Positions 14,210-57,002 of a stretch of 64,000 nt of DNA are shown here, one piece after another; positions within the stretch are counted from its first letter, which is position 1, and each line of letters starts with the position of its first letter. The stretch comes from Candidatus Falkowbacteria bacterium. GTDB taxonomy: Bacteria > Patescibacteriota > Patescibacteriia > Patescibacteriales > UBA12465. A model generated the notes under the pieces. The model was given only the letters and a program-made list of their open reading frames with translations, did no database searches and was not told the DNA's origin. The translations under genes and the position numbers were made by a program. The stretch covers positions 4,058 through 68,057 of the forward strand of contig JAPLVZ010000009.1 of assembly GCA_026396805.1 (NCBI GenBank). The letters are read 5' to 3'.

Positions 14210-14283
14210 GGGCATATAGCTCAGTTGGTTAGAGCACCGCTCTTATAAAGCGGGGGTCGATGGTTCAAGTCCATCTATGCCCA
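14210..14283 (+). tRNA. tRNA-Ile, anticodon UAU
   Basis: Hand-folded cloverleaf: acceptor GGGCATA/TATGCCC, D arm GCTC..GAGC, anticodon stem CCGCT/AGCGG, loop CTTATAA, T arm GATGG-TTCAAGT-CCATC, discriminator A, no encoded CCA. Confidence 0.85.
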
Positions 14284-14296
14284 CAGACGAATAAAA

Positions 14297-14370
<74 letters not shown>

Positions 14371-31134: not shown

Positions 31135-31206
31135 GCGCCCGTAGTTCAGCGGATAGAACGGGAGCCTTCTAAGCTCTAGACGAGGGTTCGACTCCCCCCG
31201 GGCGTA
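31135..31206 (+). tRNA. tRNA-Arg, anticodon UCU
   Basis: Acceptor GCGCCCG/CGGGCGT (G1-U72), D arm GTTC..GAAC, anticodon stem GGAGC/GCTCT, loop CTTCTAA, T loop TTCGACT; one A-C mismatch in the T stem. Confidence 0.8.
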
Positions 31207-31261
31207 CGTTTCGCAAAATAGTTGACAGACCGAGTTGTTTCACAATACAATAGCATTACAT

Positions 31262-31744
31262 ATGCCACAAGTTAAATGTAAGATATGTAATAAAGAATTT
31301 TATGCCAAACCGAGTAATTTAAAACGAGGTTATGGCAGGTTTTGTTCTCGGAAATGTCAGTATGAAGGGCAAAAAACAGGTAAATTTATCGTGTGCGATA
31401 TTTGCGGTCAGGAGGCATGGAAAACTCCTAAAGATTTAAGAAATTCAAAAAGTGGTAAGTATTTTTGCAGTAAAAAGTGTCAAGCCATTTGGAGAAATAA
31501 ACACTATAGAGGTGAAAGGCATTCTAATTGGCGGGGTGGTGAATTTATTTATCTCAGGATAATGAAAGAAAGTAAGGTTGAACCAATTTGTAATGTTTGC
31601 GGGATTAAAGATAGACGGATATTGCTCATCCACCACCTGGATCATAACAGGAAACATAATACGATAGATAATCTTATATGGTTATGCTGGAATTGTCATT
31701 ATTTAGTTCATAATTATAATCAGAAGATTATAATTAAAAATTAG
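31262..31744 (+). CDS. HNH endonuclease with two N-terminal zinc-ribbon repeats
   Basis: CKICNKEF..FCSRKCQ and CDICGQE..FCSKKCQ repeats, then HHLDHNRKHN..NLIWLCWNCH HNH core. Start moved to ATG 31262 (track uses TTG 31235). Confidence 0.85.
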   Translation: MPQVKCKICNKEFYAKPSNLKRGYGRFCSRKCQYEGQKTGKFIVCDICGQEAWKTPKDLRNSKSGKYFCSKKCQAIWRNKHYRGERHSNWRGGEFIYLRIMKESKVEPICNVCGIKDRRILLIHHLDHNRKHNTIDNLIWLCWNCHYLVHNYNQKIIIKN

Positions 31745-31747
31745 AAT

Positions 31748-31821
31748 GGTGCCTATAGTTTAATGGTAGAACAATTGGTTGTGGTCCAATTAGCGAGAGT
31801 TCGATTCTCTCTAGGCACCCA
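31748..31821 (+). tRNA. tRNA-His, anticodon GUG, with encoded G-1 and CCA
   Basis: G-1 at 31748, acceptor GTGCCTA/TAGGCAC, anticodon stem ATTGG/CCAAT, loop TTGTGGT, T arm GAGAG-TTCGATT-CTCTC, CCA at 31819-31821. Confidence 0.9.
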
Positions 31822-35019: not shown

Positions 35020-36393
35020 CTATTGCATCAGAGTCAAGACTTCGTCTCGTTTCTTTTCCATTATTTCTCGGCTGATTGCCTCTAAATTCAAACGTATTTT
35101 CGGCTCGGTATTTGAGCCGCGGACATTAAACCAGAAGTCCGGGTATTCTATCGTCAAACCGTCTAAGCGCGTAATCTTTCCGTCGCCGTATTTAGCCAGA
35201 ACATTGTTAAAGACCGCTTCTTTATCGCCGACCAAACGATTTATTTCTCCGGAATGGAAGTATTTTTTATATTGGGAAACATAAGCGGCGATACCGTTCG
35301 GTGTTTGCGAAACCAAGGTTAAGAGTTTTAGGATAATAATGCTCGGGTATTCAAAACAGCCGGCCTCGCCGCGCAGATAGAAATGGCCGGAAGCTTCACC
35401 GGCAAAAAAAATGTCTTCTTTTAACATCTGCTCCTTAATTAAGGAATGACCGACGCGGGTCATTACCGGAATGCCGCCGTTTTCTTTTATCAGGTCGATG
35501 GTGATACGACCCGGACGGGCGTCATAACCTATTTTCGCTCCGGGCTTAATTTCTAAAAACATTTTGGACAAGAGGCCGCGGGTAATTGACTGGTCGATTG
35601 TGTCTCCTCTATTATCAAGAAAAAACAGGCGGTCGCCGTCGCCGTCAATCGCGATACCAAGATCCGCTCCTCTCATTTTAATCTCGGCTTTTATTTGGAT
35701 AAGATTTTCTTCTTTAATTGGGTCGGCTTCATGAGCAGGGAAAGAACCGTCAAGAGAAAAGTTTAAGGGAATCAACTCACACGGAAGATTAGTGAATAAG
35801 GATTTAACGTAGGTCGCGCCCATACCGTTAGCGGTATCAATCACCACTTTCAAAGATTTTATTTTAGAATGATCGGTAAAAGAAAACGCGTAATCGGTTT
35901 CGTCTTGTAGGGCTTGGTCATTTTTGGATATTTCTCCGGGAATGGCCGCCGGCAGGAAGTGATTGGCTAAAACTTTGTCTTTTAAATAATTGATTCCCGT
36001 CTCGCCGCTAATCGGTATTCCTTGAGCGCGGACCAGCTTGAACCCGTTCCATTCTTTGGGGTTGTGCGAAGCGGAGACGATGATGCCGCCGTCATATTTA
36101 TAATGGCCGACGGCAAAATACATGGTCGGGGTAGAAATCATGCCCAAATCAATAACATCGGCGCCGGCTTCGGCCAATCCCCTGATTAAGTTCTCTTTCA
36201 ACTCCGGAGAAGACAGGCGCATATCGGTGGCGACAGCGACTTTTAATTTTTTGCCCTTGATGTGGTCGGGGTCGTTTTTTCTGAGTTCTACATAGGCCAA
36301 GCCCAAGAGGCGACCGAGCTCATTATCAAAATCCCGGCCGTAGACGCCGCGGATATCGTAAGCTTTAAAGATTTCCGGATTTATTGGTAGCAT
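35020..36393 (-). CDS. phosphomannomutase/phosphoglucomutase-family enzyme
   Basis: Phosphoserine loop SASHNPKEWNGFK, metal loop AIDGDGDRLFF, sugar-binding GEASGH. Confidence 0.9.
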   Translation of the reverse strand: MLPINPEIFKAYDIRGVYGRDFDNELGRLLGLAYVELRKNDPDHIKGKKLKVAVATDMRLSSPELKENLIRGLAEAGADVIDLGMISTPTMYFAVGHYKYDGGIIVSASHNPKEWNGFKLVRAQGIPISGETGINYLKDKVLANHFLPAAIPGEISKNDQALQDETDYAFSFTDHSKIKSLKVVIDTANGMGATYVKSLFTNLPCELIPLNFSLDGSFPAHEADPIKEENLIQIKAEIKMRGADLGIAIDGDGDRLFFLDNRGDTIDQSITRGLLSKMFLEIKPGAKIGYDARPGRITIDLIKENGGIPVMTRVGHSLIKEQMLKEDIFFAGEASGHFYLRGEAGCFEYPSIIILKLLTLVSQTPNGIAAYVSQYKKYFHSGEINRLVGDKEAVFNNVLAKYGDGKITRLDGLTIEYPDFWFNVRGSNTEPKIRLNLEAISREIMEKKRDEVLTLMQ

Positions 36394-37504
36394 AGAACCA
36401 AAGGCCTCCTAAACCGAGCCAGACGGTGATTAAGCCGAATATCCAGCCGACAAAGGGGATAGAAAATAATAGCCAGCAGATAATTACTCCCGGCACCAGA
36501 GACCAAGCTAAAGGCAAGCTCTCTTTTTTCAGTATTTTTTTAATAAGGATGTTGCCCAACAAGATGGCCGTTAATATCTTGGCGGCATAAATCGCTATCA
36601 GCCAAATCGCGCCCAGGATAAGAGCCAGCGGAATCCCGATAACGGTGAACATTAAAACCAAAGCGACCGGAGGTAAGACGAAGAAGAAAAGTAGCCCTGG
36701 GATAAGGGTTCGGATCGGTTTTTCTTCTATCAGGCCGATAGTTTTATAAATACCTTTCTTACAGACGGTAGTCATGACTAAGCCGACAACGATGGCGGCG
36801 AAGATAGCGAAGAGGCGTCCCCAAAGCCAAGGCCAAAAATGGTCATTAATTTTTACTGCCGGAGTTTTTTGTTGGATATTGCCGGCGATGCTGGCTCCGG
36901 GAGAAACACTGGCGGCTGTTTTGGAAGTGTAATTAATATCACCGTTGATTATCGCGCCGGAAGCGACGGTTAATTTTTGAGTAGTGCCGCCGTTTAATTT
37001 TAGATCAATATTTTTGCCGATTTTGCCGGTGATTAAAGCCTGCCCGGCATAGCCGCTTAAACTGCCGTCAATAATTCCTCTGGCCGATAGGTTCGATCCG
37101 GCGATATAAGCGTCCCAGCCTATTTGAGATTCTGTTCCTAGAACGACGTTAGCGCCGAAAGCGTTGATGTTGCGAGCGACCGTTCCGTTGATGGTGAGAG
37201 TATTGCCGGCGATGCGAATATTGCCGCCGACATCCCCATTGACCGTTATGTCTTGACTGGCGGCGATGATGTCTCCCTCTACTCGTCCGTTAACGGTGAT
37301 GACTTGGGCGGCGGCGATAAGATCGCCGCTAATAGTGCCGTCGATTATAATAGATTGTCCGGCGGCGTAGAGATTGCCGCTGACGATTTCTTCTTTAGGG
37401 ACATAGATATTTCCGCCTGTCTTGGTTCCGGCGGCTTTTAAGGCGGAGAAAGGTATTAAGAATAAGACCAAAAACAAGAAAATTTTGGCGATTTTTTTAG
37501 TCAT
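36365..37504 (-). CDS. bactofilin-like beta-helix repeat protein fused to a polytopic membrane domain
   Basis: Signal-like N-terminus, ~170 aa of repeated G(D/N)IxxAGxxxTINGxV units, then 4-5 TM helices; 3' end overlaps the PMM start by 29 nt. Confidence 0.7.
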   Translation of the reverse strand: MTKKIAKIFLFLVLFLIPFSALKAAGTKTGGNIYVPKEEIVSGNLYAAGQSIIIDGTISGDLIAAAQVITVNGRVEGDIIAASQDITVNGDVGGNIRIAGNTLTINGTVARNINAFGANVVLGTESQIGWDAYIAGSNLSARGIIDGSLSGYAGQALITGKIGKNIDLKLNGGTTQKLTVASGAIINGDINYTSKTAASVSPGASIAGNIQQKTPAVKINDHFWPWLWGRLFAIFAAIVVGLVMTTVCKKGIYKTIGLIEEKPIRTLIPGLLFFFVLPPVALVLMFTVIGIPLALILGAIWLIAIYAAKILTAILLGNILIKKILKKESLPLAWSLVPGVIICWLLFSIPFVGWIFGLITVWLGLGGLWFYATNKSGNL

Positions 37505-37585: not shown

Positions 37586-39211
37586 ATGGGGGAAGCAATA
37601 AAGGACCTGCTTTTAAATTATGCTTCCGGTTTTAAGAATCGGGATGATTTAGAAGCCGGGAAAAGGATAATCTGCAAGCGTTATGGCTTAGCGGCCGTTC
37701 CTAATTCCGATATTCTGAAAGAGTATCGTTTTTTGTTGTCTGAAAATAAGATTGTCCAAATTCTCCCTCTGGAAAAAATATTACGCAAGCGCGCCATCAG
37801 GACTTTATCGGGGATAGCGCCGGTTGCCGTTCTGACTAAGCCCTATCCGTGTCCGGGCGCCTGCGCTTATTGCCCACACGAAAAAAATGTCCCGGCCAGC
37901 TATCTGTCTAACGAACCGGCGGTAATGCGCGCCATCCGTTGCGGCTATGATCCTTATAAACAGATCGTCTTGCGTTTGAAGGCGCTGGAAAATAACGGCC
38001 ATGAGCCGACTAAGATTGAATTGATAGTTATCGGCGGCACCTGGAGCTACCTGCCGATTAAATATAAATATTGGTATATCGTGAATTGTTTTCGAGCGGT
38101 TAATGATTTTGTAAAAGTAGGCCGGTTAGTTTTTAAGCGTCCGGGAGGAGAAGAGAAATTCAATATTGGCTTAAAATCTCCTTACGCTAAAAATTTATCT
38201 TTAAATAAATTAAAGGCCGCACTTACCAAGGAACAGAAAAAGAATGAAGGCGCCGTTTATAGCCTTATTGGCTTGACCCTGGAAACTCGGCCGGATTATA
38301 TTAATACTAAAGAAATTCTGGAAATGCGCGCCTTGGGAGCGACTCGGGTAGAGATCGGCGTCCAGGCGGTTGATGATAAGATTTTGAAATTAAATAGGCG
38401 CGGGCACGGCGTCAAGGAAATCGCGGCGGCCACTAAATTATTAAAGGAATACGGTTTTAAAGTCACTTATCATTTAATGCCGGCCTTGCCGGGCGCGACG
38501 CCAAAAAAGGATTTAGCGTTATTTAAGAAATTATTCAGCGACGAGCGCTTCCAGCCCGATCAGATTAAATTTTATCCGACTGTCGTAACCGCCGGAAGTT
38601 TATTGGCTCGTTGGTACAGCCAAGGGAAGTATCAACCTTATACTGACAAGCAACTTCAGGAGTTGATCGTGAAATGCAAAGCCATTGTTCCGCCTTATGT
38701 CAGAATAATCCGATTAATTCGGGATATCCCGGGCGAGTCGATTATCGCCGGCAATAAGATTACGAATTTACGTCAGATTCTGAAAGATAGAGGCGTAAAA
38801 TGTAATTGTATCCGTTGCCGCGAGGCCAAGGAACAAGTTATCGCTTCGGATTATAAGATTAGAGCAATAAAATATCCGTCTTCCGGAGGCCTAGAATATT
38901 TTATCAGCGCGGCCAGCCGGGACGGGAAAACTTTATACGGATTTTGCCGCCTAAGAATAGATCAGAATAGTCCGGTGGCTCCGGCTATCATCAGAGAGTT
39001 GCATGTTTATGGCGTACTAGTTTCTATCGGCGGAGCTAAAAAGGTCCAACACAGCGGACTAGGAAAAAGATTAATGAAAGAGGTGGAAGAAATCGCGGCT
39101 AAAGCCGGAGCGATTAAAATTGCCGTCATTTCCGGGGTCGGAGTAAAGGGGTATTATAAAAAGCTGGGCTATAAGGAAAAAGATACTTATATGGTCAAGA
39201 ATTTTATTTAA
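37586..39211 (+). CDS. elp3: Elp3-family radical-SAM/GNAT enzyme (tRNA U34 modification type)
   Basis: 541 aa; CPGACAYCP (CxxxCxxC) radical-SAM cluster, Elp3-type core, C-terminal GNAT (HSGLGKRLMKEVEEIA). Confidence 0.85.
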   Translation: MGEAIKDLLLNYASGFKNRDDLEAGKRIICKRYGLAAVPNSDILKEYRFLLSENKIVQILPLEKILRKRAIRTLSGIAPVAVLTKPYPCPGACAYCPHEKNVPASYLSNEPAVMRAIRCGYDPYKQIVLRLKALENNGHEPTKIELIVIGGTWSYLPIKYKYWYIVNCFRAVNDFVKVGRLVFKRPGGEEKFNIGLKSPYAKNLSLNKLKAALTKEQKKNEGAVYSLIGLTLETRPDYINTKEILEMRALGATRVEIGVQAVDDKILKLNRRGHGVKEIAAATKLLKEYGFKVTYHLMPALPGATPKKDLALFKKLFSDERFQPDQIKFYPTVVTAGSLLARWYSQGKYQPYTDKQLQELIVKCKAIVPPYVRIIRLIRDIPGESIIAGNKITNLRQILKDRGVKCNCIRCREAKEQVIASDYKIRAIKYPSSGGLEYFISAASRDGKTLYGFCRLRIDQNSPVAPAIIRELHVYGVLVSIGGAKKVQHSGLGKRLMKEVEEIAAKAGAIKIAVISGVGVKGYYKKLGYKEKDTYMVKNFI

Positions 39212-39240: not shown

Positions 39241-39269
39241 TTGGAGTTTAAGTTAGAATATGCTATAAT
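39241..39269 (+). promoter_or_regulatory. promoter of the yhhQ-like leader
   Basis: TTGGAG (39241-39246), 17-nt spacer ending TGC, TATAAT (39264-39269). Confidence 0.55.
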
Positions 39270-39344
39270 TAATATATTATGTTGATTACTAAAAATATTA
39301 CAACTTGGTCGGGATTTACTTCCGCATCTCTTAGACTCTATTAA

Positions 39345-39392
39345 CCCAGGGTGTATTTAGTAATTCTAAAGCACCCTTGGGGGTGTTTTTTT
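39345..39392 (+). terminator. leader terminator with competing antiterminator upstream of yhhQ-like gene
   Basis: Terminator CACCC(39372-76)/GGGTG(39381-85) plus U7 (39386-92). Alternative 9-bp helix CCCAGGGTG(39345-53)/CACCCTTGGG(39372-81) uses the same nucleotides. Confidence 0.6.
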
Positions 39393-39414
39393 ATTAATTA
39401 AAAACAACTTTATT

Positions 39415-40092
39415 ATGTCTTCAGATATTAAGTTTTTAGAACAAATTCCCGTGTCTCCGGAAAAGATTAGCTTCAAAATTATAATTGCTTTAACTCTTTA
39501 TTTGGTTTCGCTTTTTGCCGCCAATACATTGGGTCTAAAAATAATGCCTTTTATTTTTGGCACGCATTTGTCAGTCGCTGTTTTCTTTTTTCCGTTTGTG
39601 TTTTTGATGACCGATATCATCGGTCAGGTTTACGGCAAACCAATGGCCAGAAATTTCGTGCTGGCCGGCTTTATCAGTATTTGTTTATTCATGGTTTACT
39701 CTTTCATTTCCTTATTTGTGCCTTGGGCGCAAGAAGGCCTGAGGTTCAAAGATAGTTTTAATACGATTTTCGGCCTTTCGTTAAGAATGTCGTTAGCCTC
39801 GCTCTTAGCTTATCTGATTGCAGAATATCAGGATGTCGCGGCTTTTTTCTTTTTTAAGAAAAAATTTAATAAAAGCGCTTTTTGGCTACAATCCAATCTC
39901 TCTAACCTCTGGTCGCAACTTTTAGATACGGCTATTTTTATGCTTGTTGCTTTTGCGGGCGTATATTCTATTAAGACCATACTACTTATCGGGCTCCCCT
40001 GGTGGTTATATAAAGTCGGCATGGGATTTATCTATACCCCCTTATCTTATTTAGGTATATATCTCCTTAAATATGAAAATAAAAACATTTAA
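39415..40092 (+). CDS. yhhQ: YhhQ/VUT-family transporter (queuosine-precursor transporter family)
   Basis: Strong family pattern: FPFVFLMTDIIGQVYG, SLLAYLIAEYQDV, SNLWSQLLDTAIFMLVAF. Confidence 0.85.
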   Translation: MSSDIKFLEQIPVSPEKISFKIIIALTLYLVSLFAANTLGLKIMPFIFGTHLSVAVFFFPFVFLMTDIIGQVYGKPMARNFVLAGFISICLFMVYSFISLFVPWAQEGLRFKDSFNTIFGLSLRMSLASLLAYLIAEYQDVAAFFFFKKKFNKSAFWLQSNLSNLWSQLLDTAIFMLVAFAGVYSIKTILLIGLPWWLYKVGMGFIYTPLSYLGIYLLKYENKNI

Positions 40093-40771
40093 AACCTCGA
40101 TCTTTAAGCCGAATGAAAATTTATTATCTTTTGTTGCGAGATATTTGCAAAAGATTCCTGATAACAGCATCTTGGTCGTTACTTCTAAAATAGTCGCTCT
40201 ATCTGAAGGGCGATTTATTAATGACGCAGATGAAACAACTAAAGAGAGGATAATCAGGCAAGAAAGCGAAACAGTTTTAAAGACTAAATATGTTTATTTG
40301 ACGATTAAAGACGGAATAGTTATGGCTAACGCCGGTGTGGACGAGAGTAACGGTAACGGTTTAATAATATTATTGCCGCAAGACAGTTTTAAGGCGGCGT
40401 CAAAAATTCGTCGTCACTTTAAGAAGAAACTTCGGCTCAAAAATTTTGGCGTAATCATTACCGACAGTCGCTGTTTGCCTCTTCGCGCTGGGATTACCGG
40501 GGTAGCCTTGGGTTATGCGGGCTTTAAAGGACTAAAAAGTTATCAGGGTAAATTGGACATTTTCGGTCGGCCTTTTCAATATTCTCGCGTCGATGTGGCC
40601 GACAGCTTGGCCACGGCGGCTGTTTTTTGCATGGGTGAAGGCCAGGAAAAACAGCCGCTGGCCCTTATCAGCGAGGTCCGACTGGACTATGTTGAAAGAA
40701 TAAATAAAGATGAGTTAAAAATTGATCTGAGGGAGGATATGTATGAGCCGTTATTTAGAAAAATTAAATAA
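40073..40771 (+). CDS. CofE-like gamma-glutamyl ligase family protein (F420-0:glutamate ligase / FolC2-type fold)
   Basis: VVTSKIVALSEGR, ANAGVDESN, VIITDS, VADSLATAA motifs of the F420_ligase family; start overlaps the yhhQ-like gene by 20 nt. Confidence 0.8.
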   Translation: MKIKTFKTSIFKPNENLLSFVARYLQKIPDNSILVVTSKIVALSEGRFINDADETTKERIIRQESETVLKTKYVYLTIKDGIVMANAGVDESNGNGLIILLPQDSFKAASKIRRHFKKKLRLKNFGVIITDSRCLPLRAGITGVALGYAGFKGLKSYQGKLDIFGRPFQYSRVDVADSLATAAVFCMGEGQEKQPLALISEVRLDYVERINKDELKIDLREDMYEPLFRKIK

Positions 40772-40843: not shown

Positions 40844-42088
40844 ATGAAATACGATCACTTAAAACAACAAGATCCGGCCGTTTGGGAAATAATTGAGAGA
40901 GAGGAAAAACGGCAGAATGAGGAATTGGAGCTTATTGCTTCGGAAAATTACGTTTCTCCGGCGGTTCTTGAAGCGATGGCCACGGTTTTGACCAATAAAT
41001 ACAGTGAAGGCTATGCCGGCCATCGTTATTACGGCGGCAACGCGGTTATTGACGAGATTGAACTCTTGGCGATTGAGCGGGCCAAAAAATTATTTGACGC
41101 CGAGCATGTTAACGTCCAGCCTCTGTCCGGGTCTCCGGCCAATGCCTCAGTTTATATGGCTTTTTTAAATCCTGGCGATAAGGTTTTGGGCCTAAAACTT
41201 GATCACGGCGGTCATTTATCGCACGGACATAAGGTTAATTTTTCCGGCCGCTTATATAATTTTGTCCAATATGGAGTTAATTTGGAAACCGGAATAATTG
41301 ATATGGACGAAGTCAGGGAAATCGCTCTGCGCGAGCGGCCGAAAATGATTGTCGCCGGTTTTAGCGCTTATTCCCGAGAAATTGACTGGCAGAAATTTAA
41401 GGATATCGCCGATGAGATTGGCGCGTATACGTTCGCGGATATCGCTCATATCGCGGGATTAATTGCCGCTAAGCAGATTAAGAATCCGGTGCCGATATTT
41501 GATGTCGTGTCCACGACGACGCATAAGACTTTACGCGGTCCGCGCGGAGCCATTATTATGTGCAAGGAAAAATACGCTAAGCAGATAAATAGCGCGGTTT
41601 TTCCGGGCATGCAGGGCGGTCCGCATGACCATATCACCGCGGCTAAAGCGGTGGCTTTCGGCGAAGCGCTGAAGCCGGAATTCATTGAGTATTCTAAACA
41701 GATTATAAAAAACGCTCAAGCCATGGCCCAAGAATTCATTAATCTCGGCTATCGGATAATTTCCGGGGGGACGGATAACCATTTGATGGTTCTGGACTTG
41801 ACCAGCAAGGGAACGGTCGGCAAGGAAGCGGAGAAAGCGTTAGAAAAGATAGGTATTTCCATTTCCCGCTCCACTATTCCGAATGATCCGAATCCGCCGA
41901 TGAATCCGAGCGGAATCAGGGTTGGCACGCCGGCGGTTACGACCCGAGGCATGAAAGAAGCGGAGATGAAATTAATTGTCGGCTATATCAATGAGGCCCT
42001 GGAAAATAAAACTGACGAAGGAAAGCTGGATAGCTTAAAAAAACAGGTTAAAGCTTTATGCAATAAATTTCCGATTCCGACAAAGTAA
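40844..42088 (+). CDS. glyA: serine hydroxymethyltransferase
   Basis: ELIASENY, PLP-lysine motif TTTHKTLRGPRG. Confidence 0.97.
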   Translation: MKYDHLKQQDPAVWEIIEREEKRQNEELELIASENYVSPAVLEAMATVLTNKYSEGYAGHRYYGGNAVIDEIELLAIERAKKLFDAEHVNVQPLSGSPANASVYMAFLNPGDKVLGLKLDHGGHLSHGHKVNFSGRLYNFVQYGVNLETGIIDMDEVREIALRERPKMIVAGFSAYSREIDWQKFKDIADEIGAYTFADIAHIAGLIAAKQIKNPVPIFDVVSTTTHKTLRGPRGAIIMCKEKYAKQINSAVFPGMQGGPHDHITAAKAVAFGEALKPEFIEYSKQIIKNAQAMAQEFINLGYRIISGGTDNHLMVLDLTSKGTVGKEAEKALEKIGISISRSTIPNDPNPPMNPSGIRVGTPAVTTRGMKEAEMKLIVGYINEALENKTDEGKLDSLKKQVKALCNKFPIPTK

Positions 42089-42119: not shown

Positions 42120-42926
42120 ATGGTAAAAAAAATTGACGGGACGGCGATTGCTGAAAAAGTAAAAGATGTCATCGCCCAAAATATATTCAAGCTTAAAGGA
42201 CCAAGGCCGAACTTGGCCATTGTTTTAGTGGGTGAACGCGCGGATTCCCAACTCTATGTGGCCCTAAAAGAAAGAGAGGGCAAAAAGGTCGGCGTGGAAA
42301 CGCATGTCTATAAATTGCCGGTTGATATTTCCGAAGAGGAATTATTTGATGTTATCGGTTTTTTAAATAAAGACGCTTCTATCGACGGCATTCTAGTTCA
42401 GTTACCTTTACCGGAAAAATTTAATACCGATAAAGTAATCGCCGCAATTGATCCGCTTAAAGATGTGGACGGTTTTCACCCACTCCATCCCGACTATATA
42501 ATTTCTCCGGTGTCGGCGGCTATTCTGGCTTGTCTGGAAGATATAAAATTCTCCGGCGCCGGTAAATCGGCTTGCGTCTTATATAACTCCGAAGTCTTTG
42601 GTCAGAGTATTAAAGATATTTTAGAGAAAAAAGGATTAAAAGTCAGCTTGAAAGATAATCCCGAGAAAGCGGATTTGTTAGTAACGGCTTTAGGTGAACC
42701 GCATAAGATAAAAAAAGAAATGATTAAAGACGGCGCGGTGATAATTGATATTGGGATTACCAAACAAGACGGTAAGGTTCTGGGCGATGTGGATTTTGAA
42801 GATATTAAAGATAAGGCGAGTTATATTACTCCGGTACCTGGCGGTATTGGACCGATGACTATCGCTTTTTTATTTAAGAATGTCTGGGAAATATTTCAAA
42901 GGCGGAAAAATGGTAATTTTAGCTAA
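42120..42926 (+). CDS. folD: bifunctional methylenetetrahydrofolate dehydrogenase/cyclohydrolase
   Basis: LVGERADSQLYV, ILVQLPLP, VDGFHP, PVPGGIGPMT motifs. Confidence 0.95.
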   Translation: MVKKIDGTAIAEKVKDVIAQNIFKLKGPRPNLAIVLVGERADSQLYVALKEREGKKVGVETHVYKLPVDISEEELFDVIGFLNKDASIDGILVQLPLPEKFNTDKVIAAIDPLKDVDGFHPLHPDYIISPVSAAILACLEDIKFSGAGKSACVLYNSEVFGQSIKDILEKKGLKVSLKDNPEKADLLVTALGEPHKIKKEMIKDGAVIIDIGITKQDGKVLGDVDFEDIKDKASYITPVPGGIGPMTIAFLFKNVWEIFQRRKNGNFS

Positions 42927-56434: not shown

Positions 56435-56818
56435 GGGGATGCAAGGCCTCGACAGCCGGCCTTTTTCTAAATATTCAAAACGCGCTTAGTTATCCGCGTT
56501 AAACTGACTAAAAAACATAATTGCCAAAACGGCAAGAGCATTCACTTGGGCTTGCCCGAGCTATGCTCCAGTTATGGCCTAATTAATAAAGCCATAGCCA
56601 TCGGACACGGCCAGTCTTCATAACCGTTTTTCCGGTGTCATTAACATGAAGATAGATACTATCCGCTCTTTCCGGAAAGATATCGAAACAACAGAAAGAT
56701 CGTTCCAATCGCTTTTGTTCGGTTTCTGATGATTGGGATTAAACAACAAAATCGATCTATTTTTGTAAATGTATTTAGATAAACCGACTGGACATGGGTT
56801 CAACTCCCATCATCTCCA
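56435..56818 (+). ncRNA. ssrA: tmRNA (SsrA)
   Basis: 5' GGGGATGCAAGGCCTCGACAG, 3' GGACATGGGTTCAACTCCCATCATCTCCA; acceptor pairing GGGGATG/CATCTCC includes G3-U; internal tag frame ending ...SYAPVMA-TAA at 56580-56582; directly after smpB. Confidence 0.9.
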
Positions 56819-56832
56819 CATTAGTTAGCAGC

Positions 56833-56914
56833 GGTCCAGTGGTGGAACTGGTATACACGCAGCACTTAAAATGCTGTGCCGTAAGGTATGTGGGTTCGAT
56901 TCCCACCTGGACCA
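56833..56914 (+). tRNA. tRNA-Leu, anticodon UAA (class II, long variable arm)
   Basis: Acceptor GGTCCAG/CTGGACC, anticodon stem CAGCA/TGCTG, loop CTTAAAA, 13-nt variable arm, T arm GTGGG-TTCGATT-CCCAC. Confidence 0.9.
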
Positions 56915-56927
56915 CGTAGTTTAAATT

Positions 56928-57002
56928 GCGGGTATAGTATAGTGGTTATTATACGTGCTTGCCAAGCACGATAGACGGGTTCGATTCCCGTTACCCGCTC
57001 CA
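56928..57002 (+). tRNA. tRNA-Gly, anticodon GCC, CCA encoded
   Basis: Acceptor GCGGGTA/TACCCGC, anticodon stem CGTGC/GCACG, loop TTGCCAA, T arm ACGGG-TTCGATT-CCCGT, discriminator U, CCA 57000-57002. Confidence 0.92.

Follow-up and report, generated by a model that had tools for sequence, protein, structure and literature searches.

What governs the genes behind a short leader with two competing hairpins in a genome of the Patescibacteria, and which signal does that leader read? The question is raised by positions 39241-39414 of a 64-kb stretch of DNA from Candidatus Falkowbacteria bacterium (GCA_026396805.1, JAPLVZ010000009.1 positions 4,058-68,057, forward strand), referred to in its full length as the window. 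The leader stands ahead of an operon whose first gene codes for a transporter of the Vut_1 family, and a preliminary description of the DNA had presented it as a riboswitch-like or attenuator leader of a yhhQ-like operon. Leaders of vitamin and cofactor genes in bacteria are normally riboswitches, and, to our knowledge, cis-regulation in the Patescibacteria (Candidate Phyla Radiation, CPR) is largely uncharted. Based on the comparative analysis reported here, we think it rather probable that the leader is a ribosome-mediated transcription attenuator, in which the nascent-peptide stall of a conserved, probably leaderless, leader peptide gives read-through into the operon.

The comparison drew on genomes and metagenomes. 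The upstream regions of 80 genome loci (L001-L080) coding for relatives of the window transporter were read, and the scan asked only for W-S-(G/S)-F and an ATG upstream in the same frame; this search was anchored on the transporter protein and is hence unbiased. Taxonomic labels are unreliable for some assemblies in the comparison set. A short upstream open reading frame (uORF) of the form M-L-x6-T-W-S-(G/S)-F was present in about 37 of the 80 loci, with the Trp as codon 10 every time; the exceptions were Ile (three) or Arg (one) at position 2 and Ser (three) at position 9. A metagenome scan with the degenerate uORF pattern ATGYTNNNNANNNNNNNNANNNNNACNTGGTCNRGNTTY returned at least 120 loci, and 97 of the 120 matches listed hold a leader-type uORF of 13-32 codons. 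The other 23 were discarded as chance matches, most having an in-frame stop right after ML and a few running beyond 32 codons; among the matches listed, those with the early stop came mostly from gut samples. Two matches in viral contigs, both inside a long open reading frame, were likewise put down to chance. Within the window the uORF pattern has a single match, the leader itself, against a chance expectation of 0.01. The pooled set comprised about 130 leaders (from Patescibacteria genomes and the metagenome matches listed), 121 of them unique and used for profiling, and a subset of 83 unique leaders with a recognisable terminator served for helix geometry and folding.

The conserved part of these leaders is a peptide. 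Codons 1-13 are free of insertions and deletions in the roughly 130 leaders, and the Trp is fixed at codon 10. Across 33 genome leaders, position 2 is encoded by all six Leu codons (TTG, TTA, CTG, CTA, CTT and CTC), Thr9 by ACT, ACC or ACG, Ser11 by all four TCN codons, position 12 by all four GGN codons or, as Ser, by AGC or AGT, and Phe13 by TTT or TTC. The same residue profile was found in the 121 unique leaders, where positions 3-8 are devoid of D, E and P. Since synonymous codons vary freely within a fixed frame, selection acts on the peptide and not on an RNA motif, and the pattern of substitutions indicates that the uORF is translated and under amino-acid-level selection. Past codon 13 there follows a tail of 1-12 codons and then the stop; this tail differs in length and sequence and overlaps the antiterminator strand. 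The 21-codon reading frame given in the preliminary description is exact in its coordinates, and its peptide is conserved in related leaders. A Pfam scan of the 21-residue peptide returned no family. The 42 nucleotides (nt) from Trp10 onwards have no excess folding in 77 leaders (mean z = -0.01), so that a conserved pause or 1:2 hairpin inside the uORF, considered for the GGUCGGGA/UUCCG pairing of the window, was rejected. In one Falkowbacteria locus (L018, about 2000-2060) the A-run ahead of TGG is longer by one A and the frame of TWS(S)F is lost; either the assembly is at fault or the leader has decayed.

Translation of the uORF probably begins at, or very near, the end of the transcript. 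In the 121 unique leaders, hexamers resembling a -10 box (at least 5/6 matches) form two peaks upstream of the ATG: 18 leaders have one at 6 nt and 22 at 9 nt, where the background is about 2. A motif resembling a Shine-Dalgarno (SD) sequence precedes the uORF in only 12. The position of these peaks, together with the rarity of the SD motif, suggests that the uORF is probably read from a leaderless or near-leaderless 5' end. For the window, the promoter had been described as good, and this holds in part: TATAAT, the 17-nt spacer and an extended -10 box are present, but TTGGAG is a weak -35 hexamer. Because it matches at just three of six positions, the site falls below the threshold of the promoter scan of the window and is not listed there. 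We nevertheless retain the promoter, because the extended -10 box is perfect and -10 boxes are kept at the same spacing in related leaders.

Downstream of the uORF, two mutually exclusive helices compete for one RNA strand. The antiterminator 5' strand (strand 2) and the shared strand (strand 3) can form the alternative helix CCCAGGGTG/CACCCTTGGG, of 9 bp with one bulged U, or else the shared strand can enter the intrinsic terminator. In the window, the antiterminator fold has -18.8 kcal/mol (z = -4.9, with none of 200 shuffles as good), the RNA from 39342 to 39392 forms a long helix of -19.9 kcal/mol (z = -3.3), and the duplex of strands 2 and 3 reaches -19.5 kcal/mol (z = -5.6). The terminator alone has -11.2 kcal/mol and emerges only when 39345-39356 is withheld; the full naked window leader folds the antiterminator. 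Pairing between the two strands is specific to each leader, as duplexes of native strand 2 with its terminator average -16.2 kcal/mol versus -10.4 kcal/mol with the terminator of another leader, and none of 10000 permutations across the 83 leaders reached the native mean.

Covariation was examined in a plain MAFFT alignment of 77 leaders, built without reference to structure, with partners slid by 1-3 columns as controls. All-against-all column pairing on this alignment was too noisy owing to composition, and explicit structures with slid controls were used instead. For the antiterminator, 76% of cells are paired and the score is 0.332, versus at most 0.162 in the slid controls; for the terminator, 84% are paired and the score is 0.398, versus at most 0.163. 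In either case none of 500 shuffles scored as high. Alignment pair 49-116 of the antiterminator, for example, is GC in 22, CG in 16, AU in 4 and UG in 4 leaders. RNAalifold recovers the terminator independently, with compensatory changes in five of its six pairs, and the sequence between strands 2 and 3, rich in A and U, varies. Taken together, the alignments indicate that both mutually exclusive helices are conserved and covarying. The terminator of the preliminary description, with its CACCC/GGGTG stem, tetraloop and U7, is borne out to the nucleotide, as is the competing 9-bp helix that made it one half of a terminator/antiterminator pair, and the alternative helices proposed there are kept in orthologous leaders.

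The position of the uORF relative to these helices connects translation with termination. Measured from the end of the stop codon, the start of strand 2 has a median position of -1 nt in the 83 leaders (interquartile range, IQR, -6.5 to +1); measured from the first nucleotide of the Phe13 codon, it lies 27 nt downstream (IQR 24.5-29). A ribosome was modelled with Phe13 in the P site, leaving RNA free from +15, or with the stop codon in the A site, leaving RNA free from +13. With the ribosome at the stop, the terminator is part of the minimum-free-energy fold in 92% of the 83 leaders versus 28% with Phe13 in the P site. Since the antiterminator 5' strand begins at the uORF stop, a ribosome standing there would cover it, and the earlier suggestion that a terminating ribosome masks this strand and favours termination agrees with the modelling. 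We propose, on these modelled positions, that a ribosome completing the uORF favours termination and one held near codon 13 favours read-through.

The switch would accordingly be set by the progress of a single ribosome. Transcription would start no further than about 3 nt from the uORF AUG, and the ribosome would translate M-L-x6-T-W-S-(G/S)-F. If it reached the stop codon, its footprint would lie over the antiterminator 5' strand, the GC hairpin and U-run would form, and transcription would end at about 39392 with the operon OFF. If it were held near codon 13, about 10 nt would separate its leading edge from that strand; the antiterminator, the stronger of the two helices (-19 versus -11 kcal/mol in the window), would then form, and read-through into the Vut_1, CofE-like ligase, glyA and folD genes would turn the operon ON. 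Thirteen residues in exact register from Met1 are under selection and never leave the exit tunnel, which makes a regulated nascent-chain stall the most economical explanation; by analogy with known arrest peptides, the conserved 13-mer would be the stall module, and the stall would give the ON state. The features involved are collected in Table 1.

Table 1. Features of the leader and of the operon behind it, in window positions.
Feature	Positions	Strand	Remarks
-35-like hexamer TTGGAG	39241-39246	+	weak, 3/6 match to TTGACA
Extended -10 box TGcTATAAT	39261-39269	+	TG 39261-39262, TATAAT 39264-39269; 9 nt before the uORF AUG
Leader-peptide uORF, 21 codons, MLITKNITTWSGFTSASLRLY	39279-39344	+	ATG 39279, TAA 39342-39344
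Conserved core, codons 1-13, M L x6 T W S G/S F	39279-39317	+	proposed stall module; Trp10 39306-39308, Phe13 39315-39317
Antiterminator 5' strand CCCAGGGTG	39345-39353	+	extended helix to 39361; starts 1 nt after the uORF stop
Shared strand CACCCTTGGG	39372-39381	+	partner of 39345-39353 (antiterminator) or, via CACCC, of 39381-39385 (terminator)
Intrinsic terminator	39368-39392	+	stem 39368-39389 (9-pair stem in the terminator scan), CACCC 39372-39376/GGGTG 39381-39385, loop TTGG, U7 39386-39392
Vut_1-family transporter, first regulated gene	39415-40092	+	Pfam PF02592, 2.6e-36
CofE-like 'putative folate metabolism gamma-glutamate ligase' (FolC2-like)	40073-40771	+	PF01996; best NCBIfam TIGR04132, 211 bits, below curated cutoff 350
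glyA	40844-42088	+	Pfam SHMT, 4e-162; distal operon gene
folD	42120-42926	+	THF_DHG_CYH domains; distal operon gene

The genes behind the leader point to folate. The order of Vut_1, CofE-like ligase, glyA and folD is matched in 13 related genome loci; the ligase follows Vut_1 in about 70 of the 80, a DHFR-like gene lies between the two in nine, thyA is nearby in eleven, and glyA and folD are often found downstream of the pair. When the first downstream gene was scored for 89 metagenome leaders among the matches listed, it was Vut_1 in 32, an NlpC/P60 family gene in 21, the CofE-like ligase in seven, an FGase family gene in seven, SHMT in three, a FolC-type Mur ligase in two, and HPPK (folK) and FolB in one each; further genes in leader-headed operons are folD, thyA and a RibD_C/DHFR_1-like reductase. 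The same element thus stands ahead of genes for folate uptake, reduction, polyglutamylation and biosynthesis and for one-carbon metabolism in many Patescibacteria, which identifies it as a cis-regulator of a folate regulon. Judged by its gene content, this regulon is one of folate salvage (import, reduction, glutamylation) and one-carbon use, not of queuosine. A CofE homolog of Chlamydia, CT611, complements an E. coli folC mutant, and polyglutamylation retains imported folate (PMC1971073).

The transporter itself passes the broad TIGR00697 model, 'queuosine precursor transporter', with 123 bits and fails the YhhQ-specific NF008406, where it scores 57 bits and the cutoff is 252. All its homologs belong to Patescibacteria, for instance Falkowbacteria and Buchananbacteria. 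Given the synteny and the shared regulation, the queuosine label is probably wrong for the Vut_1 clade of the Patescibacteria, which is predicted to import folate. The original framing in terms of preQ1 and yhhQ is therefore abandoned, since NF008406 fails and both synteny and regulon speak of folate, and the accompanying suggestion to test folates as ligands was apt. A sensor of queuosine acting through NAY codons (Asn, His, Tyr), which are enriched at positions 3-6, was also considered and rejected: several leaders have none of them, NAU and NAC are mixed, and the regulon is one of folate.

Several proteins come into view through their place behind the leader. NlpC/P60 family proteins of about 205 residues, beginning MEYRAVGNRCAV, directly follow it in L093, L100, L102, L114, L133, L143, L154, L163, L166, L179, L183 and L197, and FGase-family proteins do so in L101, L121, L151, L180, L185, L189 and L193. 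In folate salvage, these leader-linked proteins may act as gamma-glutamyl or formyl-glutamate hydrolases. A multi-pass membrane protein of about 240 residues and an 84-residue protein, both without a Pfam match, are also encoded directly behind the leader (L103:1373-2125, L107:4060-4836 and L187:3-650, minus strand; L135, L139 and L194) and are candidates for folate-related transport or accessory roles. In many Nomurabacteria-like and Paceibacteria-like genomes, Vut_1 has no leader and lies 10-40 nt behind a conserved gene (L023, L026-L029, L033, L034, L036, L052, L057, L061, L065, L070, L072, L076 and L079). From its C-terminal sequence our guess is that this gene is rplK, for ribosomal protein L11; if so, folate uptake would there be co-transcribed with a ribosomal-protein gene. 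An Rfam scan of 20 Vut_1 loci without the leader, in which a tetrahydrofolate (THF) riboswitch was sought, gave tRNAs only. The window transporter carries a 12-codon insertion, DIKFLEQIPVSP (39424-39459), after Met-Ser-Ser, and nearly all homologs start with MSSEK at the equivalent ATG.

The stall is proposed to report folate or one-carbon status. One possibility is that a folate species occupies the exit tunnel alongside the peptide; another is that the stall depends on whether the N-terminus of the peptide itself is formylated, and thus on 10-formyl-THF. Further options are the efficiency of initiation on the leaderless AUG, through formylmethionyl-tRNA (fMet-tRNA), and the supply of Ser- or Gly-tRNA, both of which explain the conservation of the peptide poorly. 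In its most specific form, the proposal is that the ML..TWS(G/S)F nascent chain is an arrest sensor of folate or one-carbon status, through tunnel-bound folate or the formylation of its own Met. It would control a phylum-wide regulon of folate salvage in the Patescibacteria, with Vut_1 as a new family of folate transporters and with new candidates for gamma-glutamyl hydrolases. We put this forward tentatively, as a reading somewhat less likely than not.

Some observations weigh against a stall-controlled attenuator of folate genes. The metagenome pattern required ATG, YTN and ACN-TGG-TCN-RGN-TTY beforehand, so that invariance at those positions is partly built in, and the unbiased evidence consists of the 33-37 protein-anchored genome leaders. 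The ribosome model works with fixed, assumed footprint offsets. Among the naked leaders of the folding subset, 57% have the terminator in the minimum-free-energy fold, and the default without translation is thus not uniformly ON. About a quarter of the leaders have no assigned terminator in the strict scan; several of these show a terminator by eye, some seem to use other expression platforms, and some leaders without a terminator may act on translation. Folate feedback would call for more stalling when folate is scarce, and we know of no ligand-induced arrest peptide that behaves in this way; a logic of substrate induction, which the known ligand-induced arrests would produce, is equally possible.

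Among the variants of the leader is a class with uORFs of 14-15 codons (L084, L087, L101, L105, L113, L127, L161, L163, L174, L177 and others). Here the 5' strand of the hairpin or terminator begins 0-3 nt past the stop (for example in L113, L127 and L161), so that a ribosome held at codon 13 would melt it directly, which amounts to the same logic. In L161 and L101 the hairpin may sequester the SD sequence of the next gene, and the platform of this class may be translational rather than transcriptional. In many leaders, an A/U-rich stretch of the type TTATTTAYYTAA and no SD sequence is found between the U-run and the start codon (39393-39414 in the window, and equivalents elsewhere); it may be a translation-initiation region.

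The alternatives differ in how much they ask of the peptide. A leader that senses initiation would need no arrest at all: the leaderless uORF would be translated only with formylated fMet-tRNA, and hence with 10-formyl-THF at hand, its peptide sequence being incidental or a means of tuning speed. Translation to the stop would then turn the operon OFF, and under folate shortage less initiation would leave naked RNA to form the antiterminator and turn it ON. This fits the leaderless architecture, the inclusion of glyA and folD, which feed 10-formyl-THF, the antiterminator fold of the naked window leader, and the terminator restored by a ribosome at the stop in nearly all modelled leaders. We nonetheless consider it unlikely, as it leaves unexplained why 13 amino acids are conserved at a fixed register from Met1 and why the 27-nt spacing between Phe13 and strand 2 is kept; moreover, the minimum-free-energy fold is free of the terminator in only 43% of naked leaders. 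More doubtful still is classical amino-acid attenuation, in which a shortage of charged tRNA would slow the ribosome at Trp10 or at the Ser/Gly codons 11-12, Ser and Gly being substrate and product of SHMT. The Trp at codon 10 and the distance from stall to strand 2 are like those of E. coli trpL, position 11 is always Ser and position 12 Gly or Ser, and glyA belongs to the regulon. Yet Trp is encoded only once, regulatory codons do not occur in runs, conservation extends to Thr9, Phe13, Leu2 and the profile of positions 3-8, and the regulon serves folate salvage, transport and biosynthesis rather than the synthesis of Trp, Ser or Gly.

Readings in which the uORF has no regulatory part fare worse than the proposed stall on the conserved peptide. 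As an expression platform, a pair of mutually exclusive helices ahead of a vitamin-type transporter is typical of a riboswitch, and the leader RNA might bind preQ1, THF or another ligand with the uORF being fortuitous. However, the Rfam scan at gathering score found no cis-regulatory family in the window, in keeping with the preliminary description, in which no likeness to preQ1-I, preQ1-II or THF riboswitches was recognised, and an E-value scan of the leader gave STnc180, Phe_leader and rimP far below the cutoff, with only the terminator aligned. The sole conserved block varies synonymously and keeps its frame, no fold is conserved in the 42 nt from Trp10, and the interval between strands 2 and 3 is variable. 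The label 'riboswitch-like' is hence dropped, and we regard an aptamer as most improbable. Just as hard to sustain is the notion that the arrangement is no regulator, the uORF coding for a small protein that has a function of its own, or the hairpin merely terminating elp3. This gene, the upstream neighbour of the leader, does end at 39211 and needs a terminator, and small conserved reading frames can be genuine genes; but the promoter and the uORF sit between elp3 and the hairpin, the leader has other upstream neighbours elsewhere (tRNA genes, a putative rplK and others), it precedes about ten different folate-related gene families, and the C-terminal tail of the peptide is variable where it overlaps the antiterminator strand.

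A nascent-chain attenuator would combine traits of several known systems. In E. coli trpL, the Trp codons are at positions 10-11. Like attenuators of the trpL type, the leader has a short uORF, an antiterminator 5' strand at its stop, exclusive helices and an intrinsic terminator before the first gene, and, as modelled here, a stall some ten codons in would give read-through and completion would give termination. It differs from trpL in having no tandem regulatory codons, in the selection on peptide sequence instead of codon identity, in its leaderless start, in the lack of a conserved 1:2 pause hairpin, and in a regulon that is a vitamin pathway with no amino-acid end product. The mycobacterial cysteine-rich uORF attenuators also have a leaderless short reading frame right behind the promoter, whose own translation governs the operon that follows; those sense Cys through runs of Cys codons, unlike the fixed 13-residue peptide without runs found here. 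THF riboswitches head folate transporter and biosynthesis genes, and the ZTP riboswitch heads one-carbon genes such as glyA and folD. The leader resembles THF-I, THF-II and ZTP in its role as a cis-acting element of folate genes; these, however, are RNA aptamers, whereas here there is no Rfam match and the conserved part is coding.

Among arrest peptides, TnaC senses tryptophan and SpeFL ornithine, the ErmBL, ErmCL, cat and cmlA leaders respond to antibiotics, and the stalled ribosome remodels the downstream mRNA, which turns the operon on. The uORF shares with TnaC, SpeFL, Erm and cat leaders a short leader peptide with a conserved amino-acid sequence, its 13 residues being comparable in number to Erm and Cat, whose leaders sense a small molecule inside the exit tunnel, but it has no sequence similarity to TnaC, SpeFL or Erm and no Pfam match. 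The likeness lies in the pattern of conservation, which argues that the sequence of the nascent chain matters for function. TnaC is an effector-sensing arrest peptide with a conserved leader sequence (PMC8429421). Its conserved block is fixed relative to the stop codon, and that of the present peptide keeps an exact register from the N-terminus. The present leader would act through an intrinsic terminator/antiterminator pair, TnaC and SpeFL act through Rho, and Erm through unmasking of the SD sequence. The window peptide also contains I7-T8-T9-W10, which resembles a stretch of Bacillus subtilis MifM, where I70, T72 and W73 are among or beside the arrest-critical residues at the tunnel constriction (PMC4423224). 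MifM stalls 16-19 residues past its Trp and needs a DEED cluster, whereas the uORFs end 4-13 codons after Trp10 and have no acidic residues; the resemblance was judged a coincidence, with no evidence of homology (PMC4423224).

In the literature searched, TWSGF and TWSSF were absent in any relevant context, and a search on CPR folate regulation or Patescibacteria leader peptides found nothing relevant. What we regard as new is a leader-peptide family and the class of pathway that it regulates, within known ribosome-mediated attenuation; the leader could yet turn out to embody a new sensing principle.

Elsewhere in the window, just upstream of elp3 and on the opposite strand (36365-37504, minus), a 379-residue protein combines a bactofilin-like repeat region with a hydrophobic C-terminal half. 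A transfer-messenger RNA (tmRNA) gene and six tRNA genes are also present (56435-56821; 14210-14370; 31135-31819; 56833-56999), three of the tRNA genes directly after the tmRNA gene.

For the Patescibacteria, the leader defines a folate regulon from sequence alone and flags the NlpC/P60 and FGase proteins, together with two unannotated proteins, as candidate folate-salvage functions. The 13-codon reading frame is short, synthesizable and directly testable in cell-free translation. If the proposal is true, it would be the first translation-based vitamin sensor, and a leader peptide in this role would add a new class of signal to those sensed by nascent chains.

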